NCBI GenBank assembly: GCA_022826825.1
Contig: JAJDUD010000027.1
Location: 1,050 to 65,049 of the forward strand
Reading direction: 5' to 3'
Source: Acidobacteriota bacterium
GTDB taxonomy: Bacteria; Acidobacteriota; Vicinamibacteria; Marinacidobacterales; Marinacidobacteraceae
DNA: 64,000 nucleotides
The translations under genes and the position numbers were made by a program. Within the stretch, counting starts at the first letter, position 1; the number at the start of each line of letters is the position of its first letter. The notes under the pieces are model-generated. The model searched no databases and had not been told where the DNA came from. It was given only the letters and a program-made list of their open reading frames with translations. Shown one piece after another: positions 4,653-43,026 of this stretch.

Positions 4653-4699
4653 CCCGTTCGGCGCGCGGCGTTGCCGGCCGGGAGACAGAATTCACCTGC

Positions 4700-7448: not shown

Positions 7449-7608
7449 TTCTCCGCGTCCTCCGGTCCGGAGTGTTGTCGCCTCGCGTTCGGAACGGTCG
7501 GCGAGTCCATCGGGGCTCGAGAAGCCGCGTCGGACTCACGATGCGGGTGCACCGTGCCATCGACGCTGGTTTCGCGCTCCCGCGCGATGCCGGCCAGAGG
7601 CCGGCCCG

Positions 7609-7867
7609 GTTGCTGTGAAAACGCAGTCCGGCGGGTCGGCCGAGCGCCTTGATGGCGACGCCGGCTTGGAACGCCGACCTCCGGGCGGCACCGCGCTGCG
7701 TGACCGCGCAGCGCACGGCCCGGCGCCGAGCTGCGGGATGGTTCTCTCCCGCGGTGCAACCGGGCGGAAGGGACGCGCCCAGGTCTCTGTCGCCCAGGAC
7801 GACGTGCGGCACGTCGCCCGCGGGCCTTCGGCCCGCTGTGCCGACCGGAGGTCGGCGTTCCAAGCCG
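7609..7867. mobile_element. Family-1 MITE/REP-like element, copy A. It starts gttgctgtgaaaacgcagtccggcgggtcggcc and carries the 31-bp hairpin unit ccggcttggaacgccgacctccgg(g/t)cggcac in both orientations
   Basis: It is ~85-90% identical over ~260 bp to 27308..27570. The hairpin units are at 7670-7700 (forward) and 7836-7866 (reverse). The distal end (to ~7990) is degenerate. Confidence 0.65.
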
Positions 7868-8016
7868 TTACCGCCATTTTCATGCCCGGCGGGGTGCGCA
7901 GGAGGACGCGCGCAGGCGCGTTTCTCCCGGTGGGGGCTCCAAGCCGGGGCTGCCATCACGGGGTTCGGCGGATCGGCGAGTCTGCCTTCTCGTCGCCACG
8001 ATTTGGCGTCGCCGTC

Positions 8017-10765: not shown

Positions 10766-10839
10766 TCCCGGCGCTGCGGCAAGCCGCATAAAATGTCCCG
10801 TTGCCCATCGCGGCAGCAGCAGGAGGGCTCTCCACGGCC

Positions 10840-14030: not shown

Positions 14031-14050
14031 ATCGCGCCTGGGAGGCACTG

Positions 14051-16117: not shown

Positions 16118-16130
16118 GGGACAACGAACC

Positions 16131-18188
16131 ATGAACCGGACACTGCACCTTCATCCCTTGCCCGTGGCGGTTGCCGCGCTTCTGCTGCTCGCCTTCCCGG
16201 CGTTCGCCCAGGAGGAAGCCGAGGAGACGGCCGCGCCCGAGCCCGCTGAACTCGTCATCACCCCGTCCGAGGTGGAACTCGAGGTCGGCGACTCGCTGAC
16301 GCTCCAGTCCGAGGTCCGGGACAGCGAAGGCAACCCGATGGACCGCACGGTGGTGTTCTACTCGCGCCGCCGGCGCTCGGTGGGGGTCAACCCGGCGGGC
16401 ATCGTCGAGGCTTACCGGCCCGGTGAGCACACCCTGATCGCCATGGTGCCGAAGGACCCGGAGGACACCAGCCGCCGGGCCGAGCCTGCGGTCATGGTGG
16501 AGATCCCGGTGACCATCCCCAATCCCCCGGTGGCCACCGTCGAGGTCGTGAACCTCCCGGGCCACCTCTACACGGGGACCGAGATCGGCCTCCGTTCCCT
16601 GGTCACCGACATCTCGGGCGCGGTCCGGAACGACGTCGAGGTGGGCTGGAGCAGCGCCGACCCGTCGGTGGCGAGCGTGGACTCCCTCGGGGTGCTGACC
16701 CTGATGGGCGCCGGCACGACGACGGTCACGGTGTCCGCCGAGGAGGCGTCGAGCGACGCCGCGGTCGAGGTGCTCGCCAACCCGGTGGCCTCGATCACCC
16801 TGAGCGGAGCGCCCGACGACGCGGTGCGGACCGGCGACGTGGTGTTCTTCACCGCGACGGCGATGGACGGTTCGGGGAATGCGGTGCCGGACTACCCGGT
16901 GCAGTTCGCGACCTTCGGGGTCCCGACGGACGGGATCGTGGCGCCCGGCGCCATCGGACAGGTGGACGAGGACGGCGCCTTCGTGGCGGAGCGCACCGGC
17001 ACCCACACGGTGATCGCCGACGGGTTCACGACGTCCGCCAGCGCGACGGTGGCGGTGGTGCCGAGGAACGTGCGCAAGGACGTGGAAGTGGTCGGGCAGG
17101 GCCCCGTCCGCGACCGGCGCACCTCGGACCTCTGGGTCTGGGAAGGCGTCGACGGCCGGGACTACGCGGTCACCGGCACCCACAGCGCGGACGGCCACGC
17201 CTACTTCTGGGACGTCACCGACCCCTCGGCGATCGCCCTGATCGACACGGTGCGGGTGGACGCCCGCACGGTGAACGACGTGAAGGTCTCCGAGGACGGG
17301 ATGTTCTGCGTGATCAGCCGCGAGGGGGCCTCGAACCGGAAGAACGGCCTCGTGATCCTCGACGTCAGCGATCCGCTGAACGGCGTCTCGGTGATCGCCC
17401 GCTACGACGACCAGCTCAGCGGCGGGGTCCACAACGTCTTCATCGCGGAAGACCACGTCTATGCGCTCTCCGCGGGACGCCGCTACGACATCCTGAACGC
17501 CGAGGACCCGACGAACCCCTACCGGGTGGGGCGCTTCGAGCTCGACACCCCCGGCCACTCGATCCACGACGTCTGGGTCCACGAGGGCATCGCGTATTCG
17601 TCCAACTGGAGTGATGGCGTGGTCGCCGTGGACGTGGGCGGCGGCGGCATGGGCGGGGCTCCCAACAACCCCGTGATGCTGGGCAAGACCCCGTATCCGA
17701 GCGGCTGGAACCACGCGGCGTATCCCTACAAGAGCCAGTCCACCGGCAAGTTCCTGATGATCGGCGGGGACGAGGCGTTCCCCTACCAGACGATGCGCGC
17801 GGAGCGGACTCCCGGCCGGGCCGCCGGCTGGATCCACATCTTCGAGTGGGACGACTGGGAGAACGCCCGCGAGGTAGCCCGCTACCAGGTGCCCGAGGCG
17901 GGGACCCACAACCTGTGGGTGGAGGACGACATCCTCTACATCGCCTACTACAACGGCGGCCTGCGGGTGGTGGACATCTCCGGCGAGCTGCGCGGCGACC
18001 TCTACCGCCAGGGGCGCGAGATCGCCATGTTCCGCCCGTTCGATCCCGAGAGCCGGGTCCCGAACGCCCCGATGGTCTGGGGACCGCAGCCCTACAAGGG
18101 CAACATCTTCCTCAGCGACATGAACTCGGGCCTCTGGGCCGTCAAGCTGGTGGATCCCGAGCCGATCAACCTGGGCGAACCGGAGTAA
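16131..18188 (+). CDS. Secreted Big_2 + LVIVD beta-propeller protein, paralog 3
   Basis: 685 aa. It starts 13 bp after the paralog-2 stop. Confidence 0.75.
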   Translation: MNRTLHLHPLPVAVAALLLLAFPAFAQEEAEETAAPEPAELVITPSEVELEVGDSLTLQSEVRDSEGNPMDRTVVFYSRRRRSVGVNPAGIVEAYRPGEHTLIAMVPKDPEDTSRRAEPAVMVEIPVTIPNPPVATVEVVNLPGHLYTGTEIGLRSLVTDISGAVRNDVEVGWSSADPSVASVDSLGVLTLMGAGTTTVTVSAEEASSDAAVEVLANPVASITLSGAPDDAVRTGDVVFFTATAMDGSGNAVPDYPVQFATFGVPTDGIVAPGAIGQVDEDGAFVAERTGTHTVIADGFTTSASATVAVVPRNVRKDVEVVGQGPVRDRRTSDLWVWEGVDGRDYAVTGTHSADGHAYFWDVTDPSAIALIDTVRVDARTVNDVKVSEDGMFCVISREGASNRKNGLVILDVSDPLNGVSVIARYDDQLSGGVHNVFIAEDHVYALSAGRRYDILNAEDPTNPYRVGRFELDTPGHSIHDVWVHEGIAYSSNWSDGVVAVDVGGGGMGGAPNNPVMLGKTPYPSGWNHAAYPYKSQSTGKFLMIGGDEAFPYQTMRAERTPGRAAGWIHIFEWDDWENAREVARYQVPEAGTHNLWVEDDILYIAYYNGGLRVVDISGELRGDLYRQGREIAMFRPFDPESRVPNAPMVWGPQPYKGNIFLSDMNSGLWAVKLVDPEPINLGEPE

Positions 18189-18239
18189 GGAGAACCCTGG
18201 GAGCGCCGGCCAGTCCTCCCGGGTGGGGCCTTCAGACCA

Positions 18240-18458
18240 GGAGCGCCGGTGTTCACACCGGCATCGCGGCCGCAGGCCGCGAAACTCCCGGCGCCATCGC
18301 GCCACATTGCGGGGACCCGAGACGAAGACGGCGAAATCGGAGTGCGCGCGCGCCGTTGTCGTCGCGCCACTCCCTTTGACGGGGGCGCCATGCGGCGAAA
18401 TGAAGCCCGGGAGTTTCGCCCGCTGCGCGGGCGATGCCGGTGTGAACACCGGCGCTCC
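18240..18458. mobile_element. Family-2 MITE-like element, 219 bp, with perfect 28-bp terminal inverted repeats (ggagcgccggtgttcacaccggcatcgc ... gcgatgccggtgtgaacaccggcgctcc)
   Basis: The terminal repeats are exact reverse complements. The interior is also partly palindromic. Related arms occur at 10716, 39964, 42691 and 42999. A family-1 right-end fragment (ctgcatttgcacagcaactgg) follows at 18470..18497. Confidence 0.7.
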
Positions 18459-18572
18459 TCGCCATCCCCGCCGTCGGCCGGGCTGCATTTGCACAGCAAC
18501 TGGCCGGCACCGCCCGCCGCAGGCGGGCGAAATCCCCGCGGTGCCGTCTACACCCGCGGGGCGGTCGCGTCT

Positions 18573-19046
18573 TCAGGTCGTGAACAGGAAGCCGAAGACC
18601 GCGATCAGCACCGTGATCAGGAGGGCCAAGGCGCCAAACAGGATCTGTACCTGAGCCTTCAGCCCATCCAAACGGGCGGCGATGACGTCCAGCTTGCGGT
18701 CGCGTTCCGCGAGCAGCTCGCCATGGGCGGCGACGGTATCGGTCAGCTTCGCGACGGCTTCCGTCAAGGCCTCGAGCTTCCGATCCTGTGCGTCGAACCG
18801 CTGGCGCATCTCCAGCAGGAACGGCTGAAGCTGCGGGGTAAGGGCTTCGGAAACCACGGCGCGGATCCGCTTTTCCGCAGTATAGGCGACGGGGGCGTCG
18901 AACCCGGCCTCCAACAGAGTGTGGAAGAGGGCGCCGTTGGGCGCGCCTTTCGAAGACGGCATGTCTGCTGTGGGGGCGCGCGCGTCCGGCGGCGGCTGGG
19001 ACCTCTCTGGTCCGGGGGTAGGTGGCTGCGGGTCGGTCTCGGGCAC
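18573..19046 (-). CDS. Hypothetical protein, Pro-rich N-terminus, coiled coil and C-terminal TM helix
   Basis: 157 aa, ending ...LKAQVQILFGALALLITVLIAVFGFLFTT. It sits between LVIVD paralogs 3 and 4. Confidence 0.4.
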   Translation of the reverse strand: MPETDPQPPTPGPERSQPPPDARAPTADMPSSKGAPNGALFHTLLEAGFDAPVAYTAEKRIRAVVSEALTPQLQPFLLEMRQRFDAQDRKLEALTEAVAKLTDTVAAHGELLAERDRKLDVIAARLDGLKAQVQILFGALALLITVLIAVFGFLFTT

Positions 19047-19222
19047 CGGGAACTCCTTCGGAAATGGGCTGTCGGAAGACGCGGGTGTCTTCCCCTACTT
19101 CTCCAGACGCAATTCCGGCCCGAAAATTCCCGCTGCGCGGAGGTTTGTGGAAAAGTCGGAGTGAAGATGGCTCAGGCGGCGGGGCGGGCGTATATTCCCG
19201 AGCGTCGAGGGACCGCACGACC

Positions 19223-21277
19223 ATGACCCGAACCTTTCGTTTCCATCCCATCTCCCTTGTGGCCGCCGCACTGCTCCTTCTCGCCTTCCCGGCGTTCGCG
19301 CAGGAAGAAGAGGAGGCGGCCGGCCCCGAGCCCGCCGAACTCGTCATCACCCCGAGCGAGCTGACGCTCGAGGTGGGGGCGACGGCGACCCTCGAGGCCG
19401 AGGTCCGCGATGACGACGGCAACGTCATGGACCGCACCGTGGTCTTCTTCTCGCGCCGGCGCCGTTCGGTGGGCGTGAACCCCGCCGGGATCGTGGAGGC
19501 CTTCCGGCCCGGCGAGCACACCCTGATCGCCATGGTGCCGCGGGACCCCGAGGACACCGACCGGCGGGCCGAACCCGCGGTGATGGTGGAGATCCCGGTC
19601 ACGATCCCCAACCCGCCGGTGGCCACCGTCGAGGTGGCCAACCTGCCGGGCCATCTCTACGCCGGCACCGAGATCGGGCTGCGTTCGACGGTCACCGACA
19701 CCTCGGGCGCGGTCCGCAGCGACGTGGAGGTGGGCTGGAGCAGCGCCGACCCGTCGGTGGCCGGCGTGGACGCCCTCGGGGTCCTCACCCTGACGGGCGT
19801 GGGGCGGACGACCGTCACCGTCACCGCCGAGGAGGCGTCCGGCGACACCGCGATCGAGGTGCTCGCCAACCCGGTTGCCTCCATCACGCTGACCGGGGCG
19901 CCGGCGGACGCGATCCGCACCGGCGACGTGGTCTTCTTCGAGGCGCAGGTCACCGACGCCTCCGGGAACGAAGTTCCCGACTACCCGGTCCAGTTCGCGA
20001 CGCTCGGGATTCCCGCGGACGGGATCGTGGCGCCCGGAGCCATCGGCCAGGTGGACGCGGACGGCGCGTTCGTCGCCGAACGGTCGGGGACGCACACCGT
20101 GATCGCCGACGGGTTCACGAAGTCGGCGAGCGCCACGGTGGCGGTTACGTCCCGGAACGTGCGAAAGGACGTCGAGATCGTGGGGCAGGGCCCGGTCCGC
20201 GACCGCTACACCTCCGACCTCTGGGTCTGGGAGGGCACGGACGGCCGGGACTACGCGGTGACCGGCACCTGGGGCGCCGATGGCCACGCCTACTTCTGGG
20301 ACGTCACCGATCCCGCGGCGATGTCGCTCATCGACACGGTTCGGGTGGACGCCCGGACGGTGAACGACGTGAAAGTCTCGGAGGACGCGAAGTTCTGCGT
20401 GATCAGCCGGGAAGGGGCCTCCAACCGGCGGAACGGTCTCGTCATCCTCGACATCAGCGACCCGCAGAGCGGGGTCCAGGTGATCGCCCGCTACGACGAC
20501 CAGCTCACCGGCGGGGTCCATAACGTCTTCATCGCCGAAGACCACATCTACGCACTGTCGGCGGGGCGGCGCTTCGACATCCTGAATGCCGAAGACCCGA
20601 CGAACCCGTACCGGGTGGGCCGCTTCGAACTGGACACGCCCGGCCACTCGATCCACGACGTGTGGGTGGAGGACGGGATCGCCTACTCCTCGAACTGGGA
20701 CGACGGCATCGTCGCGATCGACGTGGGCGGCGGCGGCATGGGCGGCGCGCCCAACAACCCGGTCATGCTCGGCAGCGCGCCGCACCCGAGCGGCTGGAAC
20801 CACGCGGCGTATCCCTATCGGAGCGAGTCCACCGGCAAGTTCCTGATGATCGGCGGGGACGAGGCGTTCCCGTACCAGACGATCGGGGAATCGGACACGC
20901 CGGACCGGGCCGCCGGCTGGATTCACATCTACGAGTGGGACGAATGGGAAGACGCCCGCGAGGTGGCGCGCTACCAGGTGCCCGAGGCCGGAACCCACAA
21001 CCTGTGGGTCGAGGACGACATCCTCTACATCGGCTACTACAACGGCGGCCTGCGGGTAGTGGACATCTCAGGCGACCTGCGGGGCGACCTCTACCGGCAG
21101 GGACGGGAGATCGCGGTCTTCTGGCCGCAGGACCCGGAGAGCTTCATCCCCAACGCGCCCATGGTCTGGGGGCCGCAGCCCTACAAGGGTCACATCTTCG
21201 TCGCCGACCACCACTCGGGCCTCTGGGCGGTGAAGCTCGTGGACCCGGAGCCGGTGAACCTGGGAGAGCCGCAGTAG
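19223..21277 (+). CDS. Secreted Big_2 + LVIVD beta-propeller protein, paralog 4
   Basis: 684 aa, starting MTRTFRFHPISLVAAALLLLAFPAFAQEEEE. It is ~85-90% identical to paralogs 2 and 3. Confidence 0.75.
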   Translation: MTRTFRFHPISLVAAALLLLAFPAFAQEEEEAAGPEPAELVITPSELTLEVGATATLEAEVRDDDGNVMDRTVVFFSRRRRSVGVNPAGIVEAFRPGEHTLIAMVPRDPEDTDRRAEPAVMVEIPVTIPNPPVATVEVANLPGHLYAGTEIGLRSTVTDTSGAVRSDVEVGWSSADPSVAGVDALGVLTLTGVGRTTVTVTAEEASGDTAIEVLANPVASITLTGAPADAIRTGDVVFFEAQVTDASGNEVPDYPVQFATLGIPADGIVAPGAIGQVDADGAFVAERSGTHTVIADGFTKSASATVAVTSRNVRKDVEIVGQGPVRDRYTSDLWVWEGTDGRDYAVTGTWGADGHAYFWDVTDPAAMSLIDTVRVDARTVNDVKVSEDAKFCVISREGASNRRNGLVILDISDPQSGVQVIARYDDQLTGGVHNVFIAEDHIYALSAGRRFDILNAEDPTNPYRVGRFELDTPGHSIHDVWVEDGIAYSSNWDDGIVAIDVGGGGMGGAPNNPVMLGSAPHPSGWNHAAYPYRSESTGKFLMIGGDEAFPYQTIGESDTPDRAAGWIHIYEWDEWEDAREVARYQVPEAGTHNLWVEDDILYIGYYNGGLRVVDISGDLRGDLYRQGREIAVFWPQDPESFIPNAPMVWGPQPYKGHIFVADHHSGLWAVKLVDPEPVNLGEPQ

Positions 21278-21281
21278 GGGG
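21251..21281 (+). repeat. Direct repeat, left copy: the last ~31 bp of LVIVD paralog 4 including its stop codon (ccggtgaacctgggagagccgcagtaggggg)
   Basis: It matches 22295..22325 at 29 of 31 positions. The similarity extends ~35 bp if the upstream ggacc is included. Confidence 0.8.
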
Positions 21282-21288
21282 GAGCCCG

Positions 21289-21429
21289 CTACCGATCGCC
21301 CCTCCCGGGAGCGCCCGGCAGCAAGGGTGCGACCAGGGCCCGGGCGACCACGAGGTCCTGCTCGACCTGGGCATCCTGGACCCAGGGCGCGCGCGCTCGC
21401 CACTCGGTGATGTAGTCGCGCGGGATCAC
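21289..21429 (-). pseudogene. Truncated AbiEii/AbiGii nucleotidyltransferase toxin: only the N-terminal 46 codons remain
   Basis: The minus-strand GTG at 21429 overlaps the abiEi stop as GTGA. The translation VIPRDYITEWRARAPWVQDAQVEQDLVVARALVAPLLPGAPGRGDR* matches the conserved AbiEii N-terminus (...W....W..DAQVEQDL..SRAL). It ends at a stop codon 12 bp after the LVIVD-4 stop. Confidence 0.55.
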
Positions 21430-22232
21430 GTCTCCACCTCGACTTCGGCGTTGATGCGCAGCCGCCACCGCCGGTCGCGCGGACCGTCATGGGGGCTGCC
21501 GGGCACGAGCAGCACGGTGTCGCGCGCACGGCGGCGCACGTCGCGCTCGAGGGTCGATGCCTTGTCGGCCGCGCCAACGAGGTCGAGCAGGTAACCGAGG
21601 CGCTGCGCCCAGGAAACCGGCGCCGTCCCCGCTGCTGCCGCGAGCCGACCCGGCCGGATGTGCTCGGCGAGTTCCGCAATGACCGTGGCCGCCTGAGCAA
21701 GTCCCCCGACGCGTTTCTGGTAGCCGACCAGGTCAACGGCTGTGGCTTCGAGGCTCGATACCCGGATCGCCCCACGCGGCGTGTTGAAGCTCTGGACGGG
21801 AACCTCGGCGAGGCGGGTGCGAGTGATGAAGGAAACCGCGACGCTGCCGCACGAAATCGGCCGGCGATACCCGGCCAGCGCCACCTGGAAGGTTTGCGGA
21901 CGGTGGTGCGCGGCGCCGTGGAACTGGGCTGCCGACAGGAGCGCGGCGTAGTAGCGCCGATCGAGATGCGCCATGAACGCGGGGACGAACTGCTCGGCCG
22001 GCAGGCAGCCGAGGCGCCGGTACTCTGGGGGTACGACGACGTAGAAGCCGCGCCCGGGACTCGCGATCAGCCCTTTGTTCGCCAGCCGGCTGAGCGCGAG
22101 TCTGGCCGCCGCCGGCGAGACGCCGAGAAGCCGGCGCATCTCCATCGCCGTGAAGTGGTGTCGGCCGGCAGCCGCAAAGTCGGCAACCAGGCTGCCGGCT
22201 CGGCGTGGCCTCGACTCCGATTTCATCCACAT
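21426..22232 (-). CDS. Type IV toxin-antitoxin AbiEi-family antitoxin / transcriptional regulator
   Basis: 268 aa. The N-terminal wHTH (MEMRRLLGVSPAAARLALSRLANKGLIASPGRGFYVVVP) and the C-terminal AbiEi domain are both present. The upstream region at 22233..22290 is AT-rich and unusual for this genome, and it contains a gtatc-N7-gatac palindrome. Confidence 0.65.
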   Translation of the reverse strand: MWMKSESRPRRAGSLVADFAAAGRHHFTAMEMRRLLGVSPAAARLALSRLANKGLIASPGRGFYVVVPPEYRRLGCLPAEQFVPAFMAHLDRRYYAALLSAAQFHGAAHHRPQTFQVALAGYRRPISCGSVAVSFITRTRLAEVPVQSFNTPRGAIRVSSLEATAVDLVGYQKRVGGLAQAATVIAELAEHIRPGRLAAAAGTAPVSWAQRLGYLLDLVGAADKASTLERDVRRRARDTVLLVPGSPHDGPRDRRWRLRINAEVEVET

Positions 22233-22294
22233 AATGTATCATTAAGCGATACTTTAAGCAGTCATTTGCGAAATCTCTGTGAACGCAGGACCAG

Positions 22295-22325
22295 CCGGTG
22301 GACCTGGGAGAGCCGCAGTAGGCGG
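22295..22325 (+). repeat. Direct repeat, right copy (ccggtggacctgggagagccgcagtaggcgg)
   Basis: This is a near-identical copy of the LVIVD-4 3' end at 21251..21281. It lies ~1 kb downstream and brackets the abiEi/abiEii-remnant module. Confidence 0.8.
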
Positions 22326-22483
22326 GTGCGCCTTCAGGTCGGCACCGGCTGGAGGCAGCCCAGCGGACGAAGGCCGGATCAGCCTGACGCACGGCTTCGC
22401 CACCGTTCCCGCTGTCCGACGCTCCCTATACTCCGCGCCGCGACGAGGGGCGCAGAACGCTGGAGCGCATCGATCCGGGACTG

Positions 22484-23197: not shown

Positions 23198-23295
23198 TCC
23201 GTACTCTGCCTGGATTCGCCTTCGGAGCCGGCGCCGGACGCCGGCTCACGCTGGCGTTCCGAGCGGCTGCGCCATCCGGGGGAATGAGGTCCGTC

Positions 23296-23349
23296 CCGCC
23301 GCCCGCCTTCGGCGGGCTGTGCCGACCGGAGGTCGGCGTTCCAAGCCGG
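23296..23349. repeat. GC hairpin (gcccgcc-ttc-ggcgggc) followed by a family-1 31-bp hairpin unit in reverse orientation (gtgccgaccggaggtcggcgttccaagccgg)
   Basis: It lies between convergent genes (CPBP protease and S9 peptidase). Copies of the same unit are at 7670, 7836, 27363, 27525, 27618, 36287 and 36407. Confidence 0.6.
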
Positions 23350-23368
23350 TGCGCCACGCGGGCCAGGA

Positions 23369-25348
23369 TCACTCCCCCGCGGGGTATTCGATGTCGGTGA
23401 CCAGAAACTCCTCGAAGAAATCGAGCATGTCGTGGAGCTTGTCGATCGTGTTCTGCCTCCCGTAGACGTAGTACCCCTCACCCGGATACGCCTTGTAGCG
23501 CACGATCTTGTAGTGCTGGTCGAGCTTGCGGGCGAAGTTCAGCGCGGCCTGCGGCTGGTCTTCGCGCATCCGCCAGCCGGCCGCCACGCCCTCGCCCTGG
23601 ATCACGAAGGTCGGCGTCGTGACCTCGTGCGCCTTCAGGATGGACGAGCTGTTGAGGTACGTCTCGCGGTTTTCGGGATACGGGCCGAGTTCGTACTCGA
23701 CCAGCTTGATGTGCTGGAGCTCGTGGACCGTGGAGTGGAACTCGGTCATGTCGCCATAGCCCGACAGCGAGATGGCCGCCTGGAAGACGTCGGGGGCGAA
23801 GGCGACCGCCGCCATGGTCATGATCCCGCCGTAGCTGGTCCCGGTGACCCCGATCCGGTCGGGGTCCACGTCGGACCGGCCCTTCAGGTAGTCCACCCCG
23901 GCGAGGACGTCCTCGAGGTCGCAGTGCCCCCAGCACTCGTTGTTGAGGTCCTCGAAGGCGAGGCCGTAGCCGGAACTGCCGCGGATGTTCGGCATGAGCA
24001 CGACGTAGCCGCGCTGGGCGAAGAAGTGGACCTGCTGGTGCCGCCGGAACTGGTCGTCGAACTGGGACGTGGGTCCGCCGTGGATCCAGACCACGCCGGG
24101 GAAGCGTTCGCCGGGCGCCGCGTCCGGCGGCGTGTGCACGTAGGCCTCGATGGTGAGGCCGTCGGTGCTCGGGTAGCGGATCTTTTCGGGGAGCTCGACG
24201 CGGGGCTCGGCGTCCGCGCCGATCTCGCTGTGCGCGAGCGCGCTCTCTCCCGAGGCGAGGTCGAGCACGAAGAGTTCCGCGGGGCGCGCCGGGGTCTCGA
24301 AGGTGTAGCTGATCCGGGTCCCGTCGGGCGACCACTCGGGACGGAGCGCCGCTCCGGTCTCCCGCTCCACGAGCGTCCGGCCCCCGGACCCGTCCACCGC
24401 CGCCAGCCGCAGGGAATGGACGCCGCCCCGGTTCTCGGTGTAGCTGACCCAGGCGCCGTCGGGCGACCAGCGGGCGTCGCTCTGGTCGTGGTCCGCAGCC
24501 GCCAGCGGCCGGGGCTCACCCCCCGCGCGCGGCGCGATCCAGAAGTTCAGCCAGCCGCTGCGCTGGGAGCGGAAGAGCAGGTGCTCGCCGTCGGGCGACG
24601 GCTGGGCGGCGCCGAACGCCCGGCCCGCGCGGTAGTCGAAGAAGCCGGTGTCCGCGATCACGGTGCGCGGATTCCGGCCGTCGGGGGTGACCTCGATCAC
24701 GTCGTGGTCCACCCAGCGGTCGTCCATGCGCACGTAGAAGAGCGCCCCGGAGTCCGGGGCCCAGCTCGGATACCCCTCGTAGAGCGGGTCGCTGGTGAGC
24801 CGGTGCACCTCGCCGCCGGGGACCGACACCTTCCAGATGTCCATGGTGCCGAACCGGTCGCCGGAGAACGCGATCCAGGCGCCGTCCGGGGACCAGGCGA
24901 GCCCGTTCGCCCGCGCCGAGAGCCGGGTGAGCCGCCGGTCCGTACCCTCCTCGGCCGACCACAGGTAGATGTCCGGCGCGCCGTCACGGTCGGTGGTGTA
25001 GGCGACGAAACGGCCGTCGGGCGACCAGACCGGCTGCGGAGCCCCGAGCGATCCCACCCCGCTGAGCGCCAGGTCCCCGGTGAGCACCCGGAACGAGCCG
25101 TCCCCGGGGTCCACGCCGGCGAGGTCGCCCCCGGCCGACACGAAGGTGATCAGGGACCCGTCCGGCGCCCACTGGGGCGAACGGCTTCCCCCGACCGCGG
25201 CGCGCAGGTCTACGAGTTCGGCGGCGCCGATCGGGCCGGTGAGCTCGTCGGCCGTCCCGGACGGCGAGCCGCCTCCCTCCAGGGCGCACGCGAGCCCCGC
25301 GGCGAGCGCGCACCCGGCTGCGACGGCAAGAAATCGGTGCTGTTTCAT
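23369..25348 (-). CDS. S9-family serine peptidase (prolyl oligopeptidase/dipeptidyl-aminopeptidase-like) with an N-terminal TolB-like beta-propeller
   Basis: 660 aa, starting at the minus-strand ATG 25348 (MKQHRFLAVAAGCALAAGLACA signal). The propeller repeats are WSPDG-type. The catalytic domain reads GVTGTSYGG (GxSxGG) ... HGGP. The long N-terminal extension in ORF 23369..26878 is rejected. Confidence 0.8.
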   Translation of the reverse strand: MKQHRFLAVAAGCALAAGLACALEGGGSPSGTADELTGPIGAAELVDLRAAVGGSRSPQWAPDGSLITFVSAGGDLAGVDPGDGSFRVLTGDLALSGVGSLGAPQPVWSPDGRFVAYTTDRDGAPDIYLWSAEEGTDRRLTRLSARANGLAWSPDGAWIAFSGDRFGTMDIWKVSVPGGEVHRLTSDPLYEGYPSWAPDSGALFYVRMDDRWVDHDVIEVTPDGRNPRTVIADTGFFDYRAGRAFGAAQPSPDGEHLLFRSQRSGWLNFWIAPRAGGEPRPLAAADHDQSDARWSPDGAWVSYTENRGGVHSLRLAAVDGSGGRTLVERETGAALRPEWSPDGTRISYTFETPARPAELFVLDLASGESALAHSEIGADAEPRVELPEKIRYPSTDGLTIEAYVHTPPDAAPGERFPGVVWIHGGPTSQFDDQFRRHQQVHFFAQRGYVVLMPNIRGSSGYGLAFEDLNNECWGHCDLEDVLAGVDYLKGRSDVDPDRIGVTGTSYGGIMTMAAVAFAPDVFQAAISLSGYGDMTEFHSTVHELQHIKLVEYELGPYPENRETYLNSSSILKAHEVTTPTFVIQGEGVAAGWRMREDQPQAALNFARKLDQHYKIVRYKAYPGEGYYVYGRQNTIDKLHDMLDFFEEFLVTDIEYPAGE

Positions 25349-25522
25349 GACCCCGGCTCCTCCCGGCCGCGGTGCGCGCGACCGGAACACAGGACGGAGA
25401 CTACTGGATGCGCGCCGCGGTCGCTGATGCGGGGACGGCCTCACAGTCGGTAGGCTCTCCTTTCCAATCGAAGCTCCCGCGGACGGGTCCCGAGACCCGC
25501 CGCAAGACCAGGAGGAGACAGC

Positions 25523-26794
25523 ATGTTCCGAAACCGGACCGGCGCGGTCTGCGCCACTCTCTTCACCCCCTTGCTGCTGCTCGGGGCCTGCGCCCCGACC
25601 GAGGAGGTCCCGCAGTCGACCGCCACCGTATTCGAGGGCGCGACCGTCATCGTCGGTGACGGCAGCGACCCGATCGAGAACGGCGTGTTCGTCATCGACG
25701 GTGACAGGTTCGTCGCCGTCGGCGCCGCCGGCGACGTGATGGCGCCCGAGGGCGCCGCACGGGTGGACCTCGCCGGCAAGACGGTGATCCCGGCGCTCCT
25801 CGACACCCACGTGCACCTGCGGGTGGACCGCGAGGGCCTGATCGACGACCTCCGGCGGCGCGCCTACTACGGGGTGGGCGCCGCGATGAGCCTCGGCCAC
25901 GACGACGGCGACGCGGCCGCCGCCGTGCGGGAAAACCCGGTGCCCGGCGCGGCGCTGGCGCTGACCGCGGGCCGCGGCATCACCCGGCCCGAGCCGGGAC
26001 GTTCCGAGGTCCCCTACTGGATCGACACGCCGGAGGAAGGCCGCGCTGCAGTCCGGGAAATCGCTGCCGCGAACGTGGACATCGTCAAGATCTGGGTGGA
26101 CGACCGCGGCGGCCAGTACGAGAAGGTGACCGCGGACCTCTACGGCCCGATCATCGAGGAGGCGCATGAGCACGGCCTGCGGGTGACCGCTCACATCTTT
26201 ACGCTCGAGGACGCCAAGGGGCTGCTGGAGGCCGGGGTGGACTCGTTCGCCCACAGCGTTCGGGACATGGACGTGGACGACGAGTTCGTGGCGATGGTCC
26301 AGGAGCGGCCGAACGTGGTCCTGATGGCGAACATGGGCGCCCGCGGCGCCTACGAGGACATGAGCTGGCTCTCGGGCACCCTGAGCGGCGAGGCGCTCGA
26401 GGCGGCCCAGGCCGCCCACGAGGAACGGCCCGAGGCGCACGAGTCGTTCGGCATCCAGGCGCGCAACCTGGTCCGGCTGCACGAGGCCGGGATGAAGATC
26501 GTCATGGGCACCGACGGCAACGGCGGCTGGCGGCCCCACATCGAGATGCGGGACATGGTGGAGTCCGGGATGAGCCCGCACGACGTGATCGTCGCCTCGA
26601 CCGGCGAGGCGGCGGAGTTCCTCATGCTGCACGACACCGGCACCGTCGAAGCCGGCAAGAGCGCGGACTTCGTGGTGCTCGGATCGAACCCGCTGGACGA
26701 CATCATGAACACCCGGGACATCGAGTCCGTGTACCTCCGGGGCGACGAGGTGGACCGGGCCGGGCTGAGCGCCGGCTGGGTCGGCGGGCAGTAG
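25523..26794 (+). CDS. Amidohydrolase-family metal-dependent hydrolase, probable lipoprotein
   Basis: 423 aa. The lipobox-like motif is LLLLGACAP. It has the DTHVHL metal-binding motif and an amidohydrolase-1-like C-terminus (ADFVVLGSNPLDDI). Confidence 0.7.
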   Translation: MFRNRTGAVCATLFTPLLLLGACAPTEEVPQSTATVFEGATVIVGDGSDPIENGVFVIDGDRFVAVGAAGDVMAPEGAARVDLAGKTVIPALLDTHVHLRVDREGLIDDLRRRAYYGVGAAMSLGHDDGDAAAAVRENPVPGAALALTAGRGITRPEPGRSEVPYWIDTPEEGRAAVREIAAANVDIVKIWVDDRGGQYEKVTADLYGPIIEEAHEHGLRVTAHIFTLEDAKGLLEAGVDSFAHSVRDMDVDDEFVAMVQERPNVVLMANMGARGAYEDMSWLSGTLSGEALEAAQAAHEERPEAHESFGIQARNLVRLHEAGMKIVMGTDGNGGWRPHIEMRDMVESGMSPHDVIVASTGEAAEFLMLHDTGTVEAGKSADFVVLGSNPLDDIMNTRDIESVYLRGDEVDRAGLSAGWVGGQ

Positions 26795-26804
26795 GCGACC
26801 GGCG

Positions 26805-27236
26805 ATGAAGCACGCGCACACCGTCAGTTGGGCGATCTTCGCCCTGCTCGGCGCCATCACCATCGTGGTCTCGCTCACCTCGCTCAGCGCCGCCTACCTG
26901 AACCCGGACGCCGACCTGATCGCCGGCCGGTTCACCCCGGCCGAGCTGTCGGACGGCGACCCCGAGGTGGCGGCTGCGCTCTCCGCGCGGCGGGGCACCG
27001 CGGCCGCGTTCGGCCTCTCCTACGGGATCCTGCTGTTCGGAATCGCGTGGGGCCCCTACCGGCGGCGGGGCCGCCTCTTCAAGTGGCTGCTCATCGCCAG
27101 CCTGGTGAACGCGGGCGTCATCCTGCTCCGCGCGCCGGTGCTGGGGGTCGGGCTCGGGCTCGTGACCGCGTTCGTTCCGCTCGGATTGATCGTCATCGCC
27201 GCGGCGCTCGGGGTGATGGCGCGCCGCCAGGCCTGA
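26805..27236 (+). CDS. Hypothetical small membrane protein
   Basis: 143 aa with 3-4 predicted TM helices. Confidence 0.4.
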   Translation: MKHAHTVSWAIFALLGAITIVVSLTSLSAAYLNPDADLIAGRFTPAELSDGDPEVAAALSARRGTAAAFGLSYGILLFGIAWGPYRRRGRLFKWLLIASLVNAGVILLRAPVLGVGLGLVTAFVPLGLIVIAAALGVMARRQA

Positions 27237-27285: not shown

Positions 27286-27727
27286 CACCGGCTTGGAACG
27301 CCGGCCAGTTGCTGTGAAAATGCAGTCCGGCGGGTCGGCCGAGCGTCTTGATGGCGCAGCCGGCTTGGAACGCCGGCCTCTGGCCGGCACGCGCTGCGCG
27401 ACCGCGCAGCGCACGGCACGGCGCCAACCTGCGGGATGGTTCTCTCTCGGTGCAAACGGGCGGAGGGGACGCTCCCGGACCTCTGTCGCCCGAGACGACG
27501 AGCGGCGCGTCGCCCGCGGGCCTTCGGCCCGCTGTGCCGACCCGAGGTCGGCGTTCCAAGCCGTACGCGCCACGGGGCGGTTCAGCCCTACGCCGTTGCG
27601 GCCCTGCGGGCCGCGTGCCGACCGGAGGTCGGCGTTCCAAGCCGGCTGCGCCATCACGGCTGTTGGCCGACCCCGCAGGATTGCATGTTCACAGCAACTG
27701 GCTGGAGGCCGGCGGTCCCAGCCGTTT
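27286..27727. mobile_element. Family-1 composite MITE-like element, copy B, with ~45-bp imperfect terminal inverted repeats (cggcttggaacgccggccagttgctgtgaaaatgca ... tgcatgttcacagcaactggctggaggccggcggtcccagccg) and three internal 31-bp hairpin units
   Basis: The ends are reverse complements of each other, as seen in the sequence. The hairpin units are at 27363, 27525 and 27618. The interior is ~85-90% identical to 7609..7867. Confidence 0.65.
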
Positions 27728-36267: not shown

Positions 36268-36286
36268 GGAAAGGGGAGGCGGCGCG

Positions 36287-36437
36287 CCGGCTTGGAACGC
36301 CGACCTCCGGTCGGCACGCGCGGTGCTCCGCACCGCGCACGTCACAACCGCCCCCGGAAACGGTGGCTCTCACCTCGGCGTGGAGCGCAAGAGCGGAGGC
36401 GGCACACCGGCTTGGAACGCCGACCTCCGGTCGGCAC
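36287..36437 (+). repeat. Two direct copies of the family-1 hairpin unit (gaggcggcRcRccggcttggaacgccgacctccggtcggcac) separated by a ~90-bp spacer
   Basis: The units are at 36287-36317 and 36407-36437. Each contains the 7-bp stem gccgacc-tcc-ggtcggc. They lie between smpB and the S9 peptidase gene. Confidence 0.7.
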
Positions 36438-36532
36438 CGCTGCGCGAAGCGCAGCGAGGGCGCGGACGCCCACCGGCATCCAGGGCGCGCTCCGTAGAAT
36501 CGGCCCGGTCCCACGTCGCCGGGAGGTATCCC

Positions 36533-38488
36533 ATGCCCAGGCTCCCCAAATCCATCGCTCTCTCGGCCCTCCTGTCGACCGTCCTCGCCGCTCCCACCGC
36601 CGCCCAGAACGCACCCCAACCACTCCCCGTCGAGACGCTCCTGTCGCTCTCCTCCGCCGTGGGCGGCGAGACGCCGCGCTGGGCCCCCGACGGCGAGCGG
36701 ATCCTCCTCGGCGGCGCGAACCTGCGGCTCCTCCGCGCCGAGGGCGGCGCCATCAGCGAACTCCCGCTATCCACGGGAGGCAGCGGCCATTTCCTGGCGT
36801 CGGCCGAGCCGAAGTGGTCGCCCGACGGACGATGGATCTCCTACGTGTCCGACCGAAGCGGCACCCCGGAGATCTGGCTCTGGTCCATCGAGAAAGGCGA
36901 AGCGCTCCGCCTCACCGGGAACGGCGGACGGCTGATCAAGGGCACCTCCTGGTCGCCGGACGGGCGCCGGATCGCGTTCGCCGGCAATCGTCACGGGCAG
37001 TACGACGTGTGGACGGTGGAGGTCCCGTCCGGAGAGGCCCGCCGGCTGACCGACGGACCCGCACTGGAGGTCTATCCCGCCTGGAGCCCCGATTCCGCCT
37101 CCGTCCTGTTCGTCCGGCTCGACGGCGCATGGATGGACCACACCATCGTGGAAATCCCGGCCGGCGGCGGCGAAGAGCGGGTCATCGTGCGCGACGAGGA
37201 CTTCTTCGACTACGGCGAGGGGGGCACGTTCGGCTATCCCCTCATCTCCCCGGACGGCTCGACGGTGGTCTTCCCGTCCTACCGCTCCGGGTGGATCAAC
37301 TACTGGAGCGTGCCCCGCGCGGGAGGAGAACCCACGCGGCTGGCGGCGGCCGAGGCCGACCAGACGGAGGGCGCCTGGTCCCCGGACGGCGGCGGGTTCG
37401 CGTACGTCGAGAACCACGGGGGCACCTACCAGCTCAAAGTCGCGCCGGCGGACGGCGGGAAGCCGCGCGTCATCGCGGCGCCCGAATCCGGAATCGTCGG
37501 ATCCCCCCAGTGGTCTCCGGACGGCGGCCGCATCGCAACCACCCTCGAGACCCCGACCCGTCCCGGGGATCTGGTGGTCCACGACCTTGCCTCGGGGACG
37601 TCGGCCCGGCTGACCGACTCGGTGCCGATGGAGGGCATCGAAAGTCGCCTCGCCAAGCCCGGGAAGGTGGCGTTTTCGAGCGGGGACGGTCTGGAAATCC
37701 CCTCCTACCTCTACCGGCCCGGCGCCGGCTGGGGCGACGAGGACGGCCGCCATCCGGCGATCGTCTGGACCCACGGCGGACCCACGTCGCAGTGGGAGGA
37801 CAGCTTCGAGCCCGCGATCCAGTTCTTCGTGCAGCGCGGCTATGTGGTGCTGCTGCCCAACGTGCGCGGCAGCTCCGGGTACGGGCGCGCGTTCGAGGAG
37901 GCCAACGACGGCTGCTGGGGCAAGTGTGACTTCGCCGACGCGGTGGCGGCCGCCGAGTACCTCCGGACCCTCCCCTACGTCCACCCGCAGCGCATCGGGA
38001 CCACCGGCACCAGCTACGGCGGGTTCATGTCGTGCGCGGCGGTGAGCTTCGGCGGCGAGACCTTCGGAGCGGTGATCGCGGCGTCCGGCTACTGCGACCG
38101 CGTCACCTTCTTCGAGGACGGCGAGTTCCGCCACCTGCAGCAACTGCGGAAGGAGATGGGCCGGCTCGAGGAGCACCGGGACCGCTACCTCGCGAACTCC
38201 CCCTACTACCACCTCGCCGATGCGCAGGCGCCCGTCTTCGTCCTCCACGGCGAGGGCCGCTACCCGGGCTCGCCGCAGATGACCGAGTTCTTCCGGGAGC
38301 TCCAGCGCCTCTACAAACCCGCCCGCTACAAGGCCTATCCCGGCGAGAACTTCTACGTCCGGGGCTTCGACAACACGATGGAGATGCTCGCCGACATGAA
38401 GGCGTTCTTCGATTTCTATCTGCTGGGCCGGAACGTGAACCTGCCGGGGGTCGGATACCTGGAGGAACTCGAGGGCGTGTCGCACTGA
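36533..38488 (+). CDS. S9-family serine peptidase with an N-terminal beta-propeller, paralog of 23369..25348
   Basis: 651 aa from the ATG at 36533, with a GGGAGG ribosome-binding site (MPRLPKSIALSALLSTVLAAPTAAQ signal). It has WSPDG propeller repeats, a GTTGTSYGG serine motif and an HGG... motif. The upstream part of ORF 36182.. reads through the hairpin repeats and is rejected. Confidence 0.8.
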   Translation: MPRLPKSIALSALLSTVLAAPTAAQNAPQPLPVETLLSLSSAVGGETPRWAPDGERILLGGANLRLLRAEGGAISELPLSTGGSGHFLASAEPKWSPDGRWISYVSDRSGTPEIWLWSIEKGEALRLTGNGGRLIKGTSWSPDGRRIAFAGNRHGQYDVWTVEVPSGEARRLTDGPALEVYPAWSPDSASVLFVRLDGAWMDHTIVEIPAGGGEERVIVRDEDFFDYGEGGTFGYPLISPDGSTVVFPSYRSGWINYWSVPRAGGEPTRLAAAEADQTEGAWSPDGGGFAYVENHGGTYQLKVAPADGGKPRVIAAPESGIVGSPQWSPDGGRIATTLETPTRPGDLVVHDLASGTSARLTDSVPMEGIESRLAKPGKVAFSSGDGLEIPSYLYRPGAGWGDEDGRHPAIVWTHGGPTSQWEDSFEPAIQFFVQRGYVVLLPNVRGSSGYGRAFEEANDGCWGKCDFADAVAAAEYLRTLPYVHPQRIGTTGTSYGGFMSCAAVSFGGETFGAVIAASGYCDRVTFFEDGEFRHLQQLRKEMGRLEEHRDRYLANSPYYHLADAQAPVFVLHGEGRYPGSPQMTEFFRELQRLYKPARYKAYPGENFYVRGFDNTMEMLADMKAFFDFYLLGRNVNLPGVGYLEELEGVSH

Positions 38489-38695
38489 GTGCTGGGCCGC
38501 GGAGCGCGTACATCAGCCGTATGGCGCGTAGACTGGGAGCCCCCGCCGCGAAACGCTCATGATCGGGTCCTCCCGCACACCGCGCCCGTCACGAAAATCG
38601 CGGAAACTGCCTGGAACGCCTCAACCCCCTGCTCGCGGATTGATCTGAACTGCCATGGCTGCACGACGGGCACTGGTCCGCCGGAAGTCGCGTCC

Positions 38696-38911
38696 ATGAA
38701 CTACCGATACGAAGTCATCATCTACTGGAGCAGCGCGGACGGCGTGTTCGTGGCCGAGGTACCCGAACTGCCCGGCTGCATGGCTCACGGCGACTCGCAA
38801 GAGGCCGCCATCCGGAACGTCAAGGAAGCGATGGAGCTCTGGATTGATACCGCCACCGAATTCGGTGATCCCGTGCCGGAACCGAAGGGCGAACGCCTGA
38901 TGCTGGCCTGA
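38696..38911 (+). CDS. HicB-family antitoxin-like protein (UPF0150)
   Basis: 71 aa: MNYRYEVIIYWSSADGVFVAEVPELPGCMAHGDSQEAAIRNVKEAMELWIDTATEFGDPVPEPKG. This is the canonical HicB N-domain pattern. No convincing HicA ORF was found in 38489..38695. Confidence 0.6.
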   Translation: MNYRYEVIIYWSSADGVFVAEVPELPGCMAHGDSQEAAIRNVKEAMELWIDTATEFGDPVPEPKGERLMLA

Positions 38912-38918
38912 GGCGGCT

Positions 38919-39085
38919 CTGCGACCGCGTCACCTTCTTCGAGGACGGCGAGTTCCGCCACCTCCAGCAACTGCGGAAGGAGATGGGCCGGCGTGAGGAG
39001 CACCGGGACCGCTACCTCGCGAACTCCCCCTGCTACCACCTCCCCGACGCCCGGGGTCGGGTACCTCGAGGGCGTATCCCGCTGA
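38919..39085 (+). pseudogene. Degenerate duplicate of the 3' end of the S9 peptidase gene (≈38092..38224 fused to ≈38441..38488)
   Basis: It is ~95% identical over ~130 bp (ctgcgaccgcgtcaccttcttcgaggacggcgagttccgccacct...) and has an internal deletion. It lies directly after the HicB-like gene. Confidence 0.65.
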
Positions 39086-39207
39086 GAGGGAGCCCCGAGC
39101 GCACCGCGAGGCGCATCTACAATCCCTCCATCGCCCCCGAACCGGGGAAGTCAGGCCCGTAGGACGCGGCGCCACGGCGGCGCCCGGCCTTTCCCAGGAG
39201 ACTTCGC

Positions 39208-39957
39208 ATGAGATCCAAGATGGCGCTCGCGCTCTCCGCGGCGCTGGCGTGCGCGGCCATCGCCGGCGACGCTCCGGCGCAGACCGGGCCGCAACCGCCC
39301 CCGGACAAGGAGGCCATCCGGGAGATCGTCCGGGAGTATCTGCTCGAGCATCCGGAGGTGATCGAAGAGGCGATCCGCGCGCTCCAGGCGAAACGCCAGG
39401 CCGACCAGGCGGCGAGGACGCGGGACGCGCTGGTGAAGAACCGCGTGGCGCTGGTGGACCACCCGATGTCGCCTGTCTCCGGCAACCCGGAGGGCGACGT
39501 GACGCTCGTGGAGTTCTTCGACTACCAGTGCGGCTACTGCAAGCGCTCGCTCGAGCCGGTCATGGACCTGCTCGAAACCGACCCGGGACTGCGGGTCGTG
39601 TGGAAGGACTTTCCGGTGCTGGGGCAGGTCTCGACGTTCGCCGCGCTCGCGTCCATGGCGGCGCAGAAGCAGGGGAAGTACCTGGCGTTCCACAAGGCGC
39701 TCATGGGGGCGGCGGACCGCCTCAGCGAGGAGTCCGTGATCGAGATCGCGGGACAGGTCGGCCTCGACGTCGCGCGCCTCCAGCGGGACATGGCCGACCG
39801 CGAGATCATCGCCTATCTGCAAGACACCCAGCGTCTTGCCCGCGAGCTCGGGATCAACGGGACCCCGGCCTTCGTGATCGGGAACACGCTGGTGCCCGGC
39901 GCCGTCGACGGCGCCCGGCTCCGTCAGCTCATCGCCCAGGCTCGCACCGGCGGCTGA
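39208..39957 (+). CDS. DsbA-family periplasmic thiol:disulfide oxidoreductase
   Basis: 249 aa with a signal peptide. The thioredoxin active site is CGYC (FFDYQCGYCKR). The fold is DsbA-like (NGTPAFVIG). Confidence 0.75.
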   Translation: MRSKMALALSAALACAAIAGDAPAQTGPQPPPDKEAIREIVREYLLEHPEVIEEAIRALQAKRQADQAARTRDALVKNRVALVDHPMSPVSGNPEGDVTLVEFFDYQCGYCKRSLEPVMDLLETDPGLRVVWKDFPVLGQVSTFAALASMAAQKQGKYLAFHKALMGAADRLSEESVIEIAGQVGLDVARLQRDMADREIIAYLQDTQRLARELGINGTPAFVIGNTLVPGAVDGARLRQLIAQARTGG

Positions 39958-39963
39958 TGGGAA

Positions 39964-40004
39964 CGCCGGTCTCTGACCGGCATCGCCCGCGCAGCGGGCG
40001 AAAC
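39964..40004. repeat. Family-2 repeat arm (cgccggtctctgaccggcatcgcccgcgcagcgggcgaaac) between the convergent dsbA and TonB-dependent receptor genes
   Basis: It matches the arms of the 18240..18458 element and the arm at 42691. Confidence 0.6.
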
Positions 40005-42690: not shown

Positions 42691-43026
42691 GGAGCGCCGG
42701 TCTTCAGACCGGCATCGCCCGCGCAGCGGGCGAAACTCCCGACGCCATTTCGCCGCATTGCACCGCCGCTCAAAGGAACGGCGAGGCGCCTGCACGGGCG
42801 TACGCTGCGTCGCCATCCCCGTTCCGGACCCCCGCGACGGGGCGCCATGGTGCCGCGAGTTTGCTGTGAGAATGCAGTCCCGCGGGTCGGCCAAGCGCCG
42901 TGAGAACGCCGCCGGCCGGCGTCCCAGTCGTTCCGCCGTTCTCATCACCGGCGGGGTGTGCGGCACATCCCGGTCATGCCCGTTTCACGCCGTTGGCCGC
43001 GATGCCGGTCCGATGACGGGCGCTCC
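42691..43026. mobile_element. Nested composite repeat: family-2 arms (42691.. and 42999..43026) enclosing a family-1 left-end fragment (42859..42960)
   Basis: The left arm reads ggagcgccggtcttcagaccggcatcgcc. The degenerate right arm reads gcgatgccggtccgatgacgggcgctcc. The internal segment gtttgctgtgagaatgcagtcccgcgggtcggcc matches the family-1 start. Confidence 0.5.

Follow-up and report, generated by a model that had tools for sequence, protein, structure and literature searches.

Little is understood of how chromosomal toxin-antitoxin (TA) and small defence operons travel from locus to locus and from strain to strain, since mobility genes are missing from most of them. CIMEs are cis-mobilisable, att-flanked relics of ICEs that lack recombination genes. 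Campbell-type insertion-duplication of circular DNA is a laboratory technique and is not known as a natural means by which single TA or defence operons arrive together with duplications of 0.3–0.6 kb. Duplication of a gene end is known from e14, which lies in icd of E. coli and leaves the C-terminal pseudogene icdC; the two copies can recombine (PMC13626634). Transformation-induced merodiploidy has been described in S. pneumoniae (PMC3784515). Orphan antitoxins are well known, as recorded for example in a Klebsiella survey (PMC7192599). At the locus analysed here, an antitoxin gene without its toxin lies in a short insert bracketed by two copies of the 3' end of an intact host gene.

The window, i.e., the whole 64,000-nucleotide stretch of DNA analysed, contains on its forward strand a gene of the S9 prolyl-oligopeptidase family with a PD40 beta-propeller (36533–38488; Pfam Peptidase_S9, E = 1.4e-37, and PD40, E = 5.8e-31), encoding 651 aa from the ATG at 36533. 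This host gene is intact, and the same 651-aa product is predicted on sister contigs. The initial annotation had described, directly after it, a 71-aa HicB-family gene and then a decayed duplicate of the peptidase 3' end with an internal deletion and a mutated stop region. Realignment confirmed this architecture: 38092–38228 and 38919–39055 form a direct repeat with 94% identity over 137 nt, and a self-comparison recovered the repeat at 96% identity over 129 nt (self-BLAST, E = 2.6e-57).

The functional copy of the duplicated segment, H (38087–38488, forward strand), comprises the last 134 codons of the peptidase gene and its stop codon. Exactly this stretch is what the full-length second copies, H', align to in L003 (6219–6620) and L005 (3806–4208), where L numbers denote the loci fetched for comparison. 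These copies are 402/403 bp long and 97% (L003) and 95.5% (L005) identical to the H of their own locus. In the window, H' consists of two forward-strand parts: a decayed copy of 38086–38228 at 38914–39055 (94–96% identity), and, out of frame at 39056–39086, a copy of the terminal ~40 nt of the gene with its TGA, with an 86% match between the tails 38468–38489 and 39065–39086. Relative to 38086–38488 of the peptidase gene, it lacks one A, ~221 nt (roughly 38229–38449) and 9 nt (38461–38469), and because of these 221-, 9- and 1-nt deletions its TGA at 39083–39085 is out of frame. The deletions are common to all other contigs besides L003 and L005.

At the base level, H' starts at 38914/38915 and has CGGCT in common with 38086–38090. 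The junction (GGCGGCT, 38912–38918, forward strand) contains the last bases common to other hicAB loci and overlaps this CGGCT, the joint between the insert and H' being a 5-nt microhomology. In L005 the junction reads GGCTACTGC, of which an A has been lost in the window. The distance from the hicB stop to the start of H' is 5–7 nt in all hicB contigs of this context. H and H' of L003 are identical over their first ~288 nt, including four variants that are not in the window, and differ at 11 sites in the last ~110 nt. Moreover, tail haplotypes are swapped between H and H' in different contigs, and both copies fall within the diversity of the lineage. H and H' thus still exchange sequence by recombination, and comparison with the relatives shows the two copies to be scrambled by gene conversion and population recombination.

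The insert measures 425 bp (0.43 kb; ~0.9 kb before decay). In the segment designated X (38489–38918), hicB is preceded by 207 non-coding bases after the peptidase stop. The first 47 nt (38489–38535, forward strand) are missing from relatives at this site and, given a weak resemblance to the end of a MITE-like dispersed repeat, are possibly its degenerate outer end; a 26-nt motif after the stop codon had no match in a scan of JGI metagenomes. The truncated left arm of this repeat follows at 38536–38618 (forward strand; 78% identity to window 7940–7854). A complete repeat of ~310 bp lies between the peptidase stop and hicA in L008 (2655–2962), of which the window retains just the first ~85 nt. 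The hicA leader (38617–38654, forward strand) is the point at which similarity to other hicAB loci begins, about 42 nt before the hicA ATG; this limit was set by blastn of L009 against L089, L092 and L094, with alignments starting at L009 160–163.

Copies of the MITE-like family, ~310–360 bp long, are dispersed in the window at 7584–7940, 27288–27700 and 42861–42990, with shorter pieces at 23289–23355, 36272–36470 and 38536–38618; its members have a conserved end, GTTGCTGTGAAAATGCAGTCCGGCGGGTCGGCC, and an internal hairpin, GCTTGGAACGCCGACCTCCGGTCGGCAC. A second family of short palindromic repeats (GGAGCGCCGGTGTTCACACCGGCATCGC...) is present as inverted pairs and single copies at 18239–18459, 42691–42788 and 39960–40004.

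The toxin gene is reduced to a 14-codon ORF, MAARRALVRRKSRP (38655–38699, forward strand), identified by alignment to the intact hicA of L009 and consisting of the first ~11 and the last 4 codons of an 84-aa HicA with a 210-bp in-frame deletion between them. The intact L009 protein (Pfam HicA_toxin PF07927, E = 8.4e-8) is encoded by a gene overlapping hicB, and in L009 as in the window the stop codon of hicA, or of its remnant, is joined to the hicB start in an ATGA overlap. The search of 38489–38695 for a degraded hicA, suggested by the initial annotation, was rewarded through the L009 alignment, by which alone the remnant was recognised; a HicA profile search of the three forward frames of 38489–38697 detected none. 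A different deletion in L005 removed the spacer and the 5' three-quarters of hicA.

The hicB gene (38696–38911, forward strand) encodes a 71-aa antitoxin that is full length for its subfamily and has no cognate toxin left. Its product matches HicB_lk_antitox (PF15919, E = 7.7e-11) and UPF0150 (PF21748, E = 3.6e-10), both above the gathering score, and has thousands of relatives of 70–71 aa with 76–85% identity; the match to the solved HicB structures 6g1c and 6g1n is weak in sequence. The profile match covers positions 1–59 of 123, i.e., the N-terminal fold, and lacks the C-terminal RHH/HTH DNA-binding domain. The 140-aa ORF at 38489–38911 in the ORF list was rejected as a spurious upstream extension of hicB. 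NCBIfam provided no names for HicB, HicA or AbiEi, no sigma-70-like promoter or terminator was found in 38300–39300, and no Rfam family was found in the region.

In every contig examined, X is devoid of a recombinase or other mobility gene. Insertion of a transposon, IS or MITE was considered and rejected, since terminal inverted repeats at both insert ends and a short target duplication are absent, the MITE-like repeat being only internal to X and the duplication measuring 402 bp. X is therefore a mosaic in which short homologies join a fragment of a repeat to a truncated operon.

At the peptidase site, the toxin was lost and the antitoxin kept at least twice; the same is seen at the source-type locus (L093, L097), and at AbiE, too, the toxin is gone and the antitoxin remains. 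Within one population, hicA occurs intact, with an internal deletion and with a 5' deletion. HicB would persist as an orphan antitoxin that is neutral or else counteracts a related HicA encoded at another place in the genome.

A 96%-identical HicB, together with an intact HicA, is encoded at other loci in related MAGs. One such locus lies between an S-Me-THD gene and aroM (L089–L091, L095); another, a rearranged copy, retains the 3' end of a gene for a Res-type helicase and ~45 nt from the start of aroM (L092, L096). L091 and L011 belong to one MAG, VXNL01, and L011 carries no hicB at the peptidase site. The similarity of these loci to the peptidase-site hicAB, ~90%, begins ~42 nt upstream of hicA and ends 8 nt downstream of hicB. 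A defined end of the cassette was rejected, for the left limits of similarity vary by locus (-32 vs. -42), matching the 3' end of the Res-helicase gene. The peptidase-site hicAB differs from the VXNL01 copy (L091) by ~10% of nucleotides, about equal to the divergence of the host genes of the two lineages, and it was therefore probably copied from the lineage's own hicAB locus.

Two further arrangements were observed around hicAB or hicB. In L094, genes for a tyrosine integrase and HU (749–2141) are located directly upstream of the 96%-identical hicAB, and the common sequence has its boundary within a cluster of REP-like hairpins (equivalent to L089 3467). In L097, a copy of the 5' part of aroM (2308–2712 vs. 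4309–4732, 72% identical) directly follows a full-length gene for a Res-type helicase and precedes hicB-aroM by ~2 kb; it resembles an older rearrangement of this general kind.

With the peptidase protein as query, species-representative genomes yielded 78 loci, the closest of which belong to MAGs of Acidobacteria (Vicinamibacteria, 'Ca. Marinacidobacterium'); their isolate names suggest sponge and coral hosts. In about ten hicB-less species (e.g., L011, L012, L015, L017, L029, L036, L020 and L021) the peptidase gene is followed by dsbA, in most cases with smpB upstream. In the window, H' is followed by a 121-nt peptidase–dsbA spacer (39087–39207, forward strand; L012 7964–8070 at 89%) and by a dsbA/scsC-like thiol:disulfide oxidoreductase gene (39208–39957, forward strand; Pfam DSBA, E = 7e-24, and ScsC_N, E = 4.7e-13) that is syntenic in relatives. 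The same spacer sits within a few nt of the peptidase stop in the hicB-less relatives, and X has no counterpart at the peptidase site in related species. The position of the spacer and the absence of hicB in relatives thus mark both the insert and the duplication as derived, and the alternative of an ancestral hicB gene, named in the initial annotation, was not borne out by the orthologous loci. Comparison across species shows the ancestral order to be smpB, S9 peptidase, dsbA; H' with the spacer is accordingly the old arrangement, to which X and the duplication were added, probably at one time, in the lineage of the window.

The exact HicB protein is encoded on 14 metagenome contigs, ten of which were viewed, and near-identical variants occur in the same context. 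That hicB is ancestral at the site and the repeat an artefact of assembly or binning is extremely improbable. The data are indeed metagenome-derived, and the peptidase gene occurs at 82–83% identity also in MAGs assigned to other phyla; however, the identical peptidase-hicB-H' layout is present in at least 13 independent contigs from several samples and different assemblers, including a 3.99-Mb contig, which shows that the structure did not arise in assembly, and hicB is missing from the site in every related species. Small indels cannot be relied on in L005 and L008, which are 2x long-read contigs, and only their large differences were trusted. The look-up of an empty-site allele by the DsbA protein returned the window's own contig only, and neither a circular form nor a same-species empty-site allele was found.

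The peptidase–dsbA interval is variable among the relatives. REP-like MITE versions are located directly after the peptidase stop in most related species. In L013 (3072–3775) and L014 (8226–9095), ~2 kb are inserted between the peptidase gene and dsbA; this insert begins with a REP-like hairpin and an AT-richer stretch and contains ~12 tandem 72-bp units of ~75% identity. In L005 (4283–5464), a Rieske/ring-hydroxylating oxygenase gene with REP-like repeats on both sides lies between H' and dsbA. Peptidases 82–84% identical at the protein level are encoded in Longimicrobiales/Gemmatimonadota and Gammaproteobacteria MAGs (L022–L037, L046, L032) next to different neighbours, without smpB or dsbA, which reflects either inter-phylum transfer or mis-binning.

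The parallel with AbiE drawn in the initial annotation holds, and is stronger in relatives. On the reverse strand of the window (21249–22326), a 34-bp repeat of the end of the upstream LVIVD/Big_2 gene (21249–21282 / 22293–22326) encloses AbiEi (21426–22232; Pfam E = 2.4e-45), and the space for abiEii (21283–21425) corresponds to ~33 codons only. A putative AbiEii N-terminus is found there; the 46-aa candidate AbiEii stub had no Pfam match, and its 37-aa N-terminal part had no tblastn match in plasmids. Exact look-ups of the window AbiEi with two different start codons gave no match. At the same site, L103 and L104 carry intact AbiEi/AbiEii with duplications of 133 bp and 314 bp, respectively, that of L104 being 95% identical and ending 8 nt past the stop codon. 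The 34-bp repeat of the window is, by comparison with L104, the remnant of such a 314-bp duplication.

The gene hosting the AbiE insertion is the last of four tandem paralogues of ~690 aa with Big_2/LVIVD repeats (10801–21277; 70–89% DNA identity). A second S9 peptidase paralogue (23369–26878, reverse strand), ~71% identical to the first in DNA over 281 nt, adjoins AbiE, and this neighbourhood is kept in L103 and L104.

An AAA_21 gene pair in L093 lies between two copies of a segment that aligns over at least 165 bp, the left copy being cut by the edge of the fetched locus; judged from the sequences, the segment is estimated at ~300 bp. It spans the junction of the 5' end of an MFS gene and the 3' end of an S-Me-THD gene. 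The inserted pair, an AAA_21/AAA_15 ATPase gene with a gene for a 218-aa partner (L093 1–2800), lies between these two genes, both of which are kept intact, and is possibly a defence pair. A further case concerns the peptidase gene itself: in L041 (7897–8059) and L039 (7992–8244), a fragment of smpB is repeated directly after the peptidase stop, forming a smpB-[peptidase]-smpB' layout. The fragment starts near codon 41 and reaches ~240 nt beyond the smpB stop; in L041, H is at least 630 bp long. A faint trace of this repeat after the peptidase stop was noticed in L020 and L021. The layout suggests that the peptidase gene may itself have arrived by a like insertion-duplication.

The repeated targeting of gene 3' ends put forward in the initial annotation stands in so far as the pattern recurs at other loci; a targeting of 3' ends as such is unproven, since the L093 duplication covers a two-gene junction and the one in L041 reaches ~240 nt past the smpB stop. 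Among the peptidase, LVIVD and S-Me-THD/MFS loci, the starts of the duplications have no common motif. The scan for self-repeats covered the fetched loci and is not an unbiased survey.

Overall, the layout A-H-X-H'-B seen at the peptidase site is found with single-operon inserts at three other places (AbiE, the AAA_21 pair and smpB), and this recurrence bears on whether insertion and duplication were separate. Two independent events, either a tandem duplication followed by entry of hicAB at its joint, or entry of hicAB followed by a duplication with partial deletion leaving H', would be in keeping with the frequency of tandem duplications in bacteria and their induction by incoming DNA (PMC3784515), and the REP/MITE-like sequences after the stop in most relatives are possible fragile or recombinogenic sites. 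Such a history would, however, demand that the cargo landed precisely on the joint of H and H', or that a second X was removed precisely, and this separately at three or four loci; in addition, no contig shows either the insert or the duplication by itself. It is regarded as quite improbable. That insertions hit the joint of an existing duplication exactly in three to four cases is highly improbable; insertion and duplication therefore probably took place at one time.

The best explanation, given with moderate confidence, is that a single operon entered in one step by insertion-duplication without an integrase and later lost its toxin. A single event probably set a mosaic of the MITE-like repeat and hicA-hicB directly after the peptidase stop; the operon was copied from a locus of the Res-helicase/hicAB/aroM type and truncated 42 nt upstream of hicA and 8 nt downstream of hicB. 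In the same step, the final 402 bp of the peptidase gene were repeated beyond the insert, so that the gene stayed intact and a spare H' was left beside the old spacer. Two routes could lead to this outcome: single-crossover (Campbell-type) homologous integration of a circularised H + X, in which the microhomology would be the circularisation joint, or repair of a break or replication fork that joined copied DNA at microhomologies and resumed behind the break. Later changes were a deletion within the MITE-like repeat, the 210-bp in-frame loss from hicA and the three deletions in H'. The remnant of hicA would then be a 14-codon leader ending in the ATGA overlap, and retention of this overlap after the deletion predicts that hicB could still be translated. 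In length, every H would suffice for RecA: 402 bp at the peptidase site, 314 bp in L104, no less than 165 bp in L093 (cut by the locus edge) and no less than 630 bp in L041.

Besides the lack of a circular form and of a same-species empty-site allele among the contigs recovered, another feature speaks against a one-step insertion-duplication: H ends exactly at the stop codon, as predicted for an element-borne attP that restores the gene. Such a boundary would also be expected if donor and recipient alleles differed directly after the stop, as those of relatives do; alleles diverge at this very point, where most relatives carry REP-like hairpins. The same boundary belongs to the case for an integrase-mediated element, an e14/icd-like or CIME-like relic that would have carried the last 402 bp of the gene in its attP, integrated at ~38087 and then lost all but an addictive hicAB module, the latter being kept since a deletion of the antitoxin would be lethal as long as the toxin acts. 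The architecture is like that of e14, flanked by icd and the C-terminal pseudogene icdC (PMC13626634), the pattern is seen again at other gene ends, the tyrosine integrase of L094 adjoins a 96%-identical hicAB, and X is 3–6 times less diverse than its flanks. Such an origin is nevertheless doubtful. No variant at the peptidase or AbiE site contains an integrase or other cargo, even where the toxins are intact; the end of hicB, 8 nt from the supposed core, is an arbitrary cut of a cassette from another locus; the four duplication starts lack a common core motif; the duplications of L093 and smpB extend over a two-gene junction and ~240 nt past a stop codon, respectively; and H and H' both lie within the lineage's own diversity. 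The decayed mobile element proposed in the initial annotation is consequently unproven, the inserts at both sites being single operons without recombinase, transposase or island cargo in any variant, and an attachment site finds no support in a hicB/H' joint that is a 5-nt microhomology with hicAB cut arbitrarily and no recognisable att.

Mean pairwise divergence by segment was calculated across 11 contigs. It amounts to 3.1–5.8% for the peptidase gene, H, H', the spacer and dsbA, to 1.7% for the non-coding part of X and to 0.8% for the hicA remnant with hicB; X is thus 3–6 times less diverse than its flanks, and its edges are sharp. The low diversity of X reflects either a recent spread through a diverged population or the lack of a diverged homologue from which variation could be imported. 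A more speculative proposal, rated unlikely, is that in these sponge-associated Acidobacteria single TA or defence operons move without a recombinase of their own. Their integration by insertion-duplication would leave 0.3–0.6-kb copies of the end of the adjoining host gene, and recombination between H and H' would release an H + X circle able to re-enter any strain possessing the host gene. If this were true, the scar itself would be a mobility device, accounting for X being far less diverse than its flanks.

The locus keeps a near-whole life history of a cassette in a natural population: the source locus, the 402-bp scar, the microhomology joint, the intact toxin allele, two different toxin deletions and the progressive decay of H'. 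A like scar surrounds a second TA in the same window and at least two other inserts in relatives. Should it prove to be the general outcome of recombinase-free insertion-duplication, it would provide a simple sequence signature for recently acquired cassettes.

The components of the locus are ordinary, namely a decaying type II TA locus and a pseudogene fragment; unusual is the long, recurrent, recombinase-free scar. Like type II HicAB systems, e.g., that of Burkholderia pseudomallei (PDB 6g1c/6g1n), the locus has the hicA-hicB order, the 4-nt ATGA overlap and the respective Pfam matches, but the HicB is 71 aa long without an RHH/HTH domain and the toxin of the window is reduced to 14 codons. 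As in other orphan antitoxins, the antitoxin gene is kept without its toxin, whereas here the route is visible through coexisting hicA alleles. The AbiE type IV TA is represented by AbiEi in the window and by an adjoining AbiEii in relatives, the abiEii of the window differing in its length of ~33 codons. With CIMEs the locus has in common a short insert, direct repeats of the target and the absence of mobility genes; unlike them, it is associated with no known att function, cognate ICE or integrase. As with e14 (and phage 21) in icd, the closest known analogue, the host gene is kept intact and a second copy of its 3' end lies on the far side, but e14 is a 15-kb prophage with an integrase and a defined att core, while the insert described here is a 0.43-kb recombinase-free operon with a microhomology joint. 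The layout, A-H-X-H-B with the homologous segment on both sides of new DNA, is like that of Campbell-type integration and of the merodiploidy of S. pneumoniae, which differ in being known as a laboratory method or for duplications of 100–900 kb.
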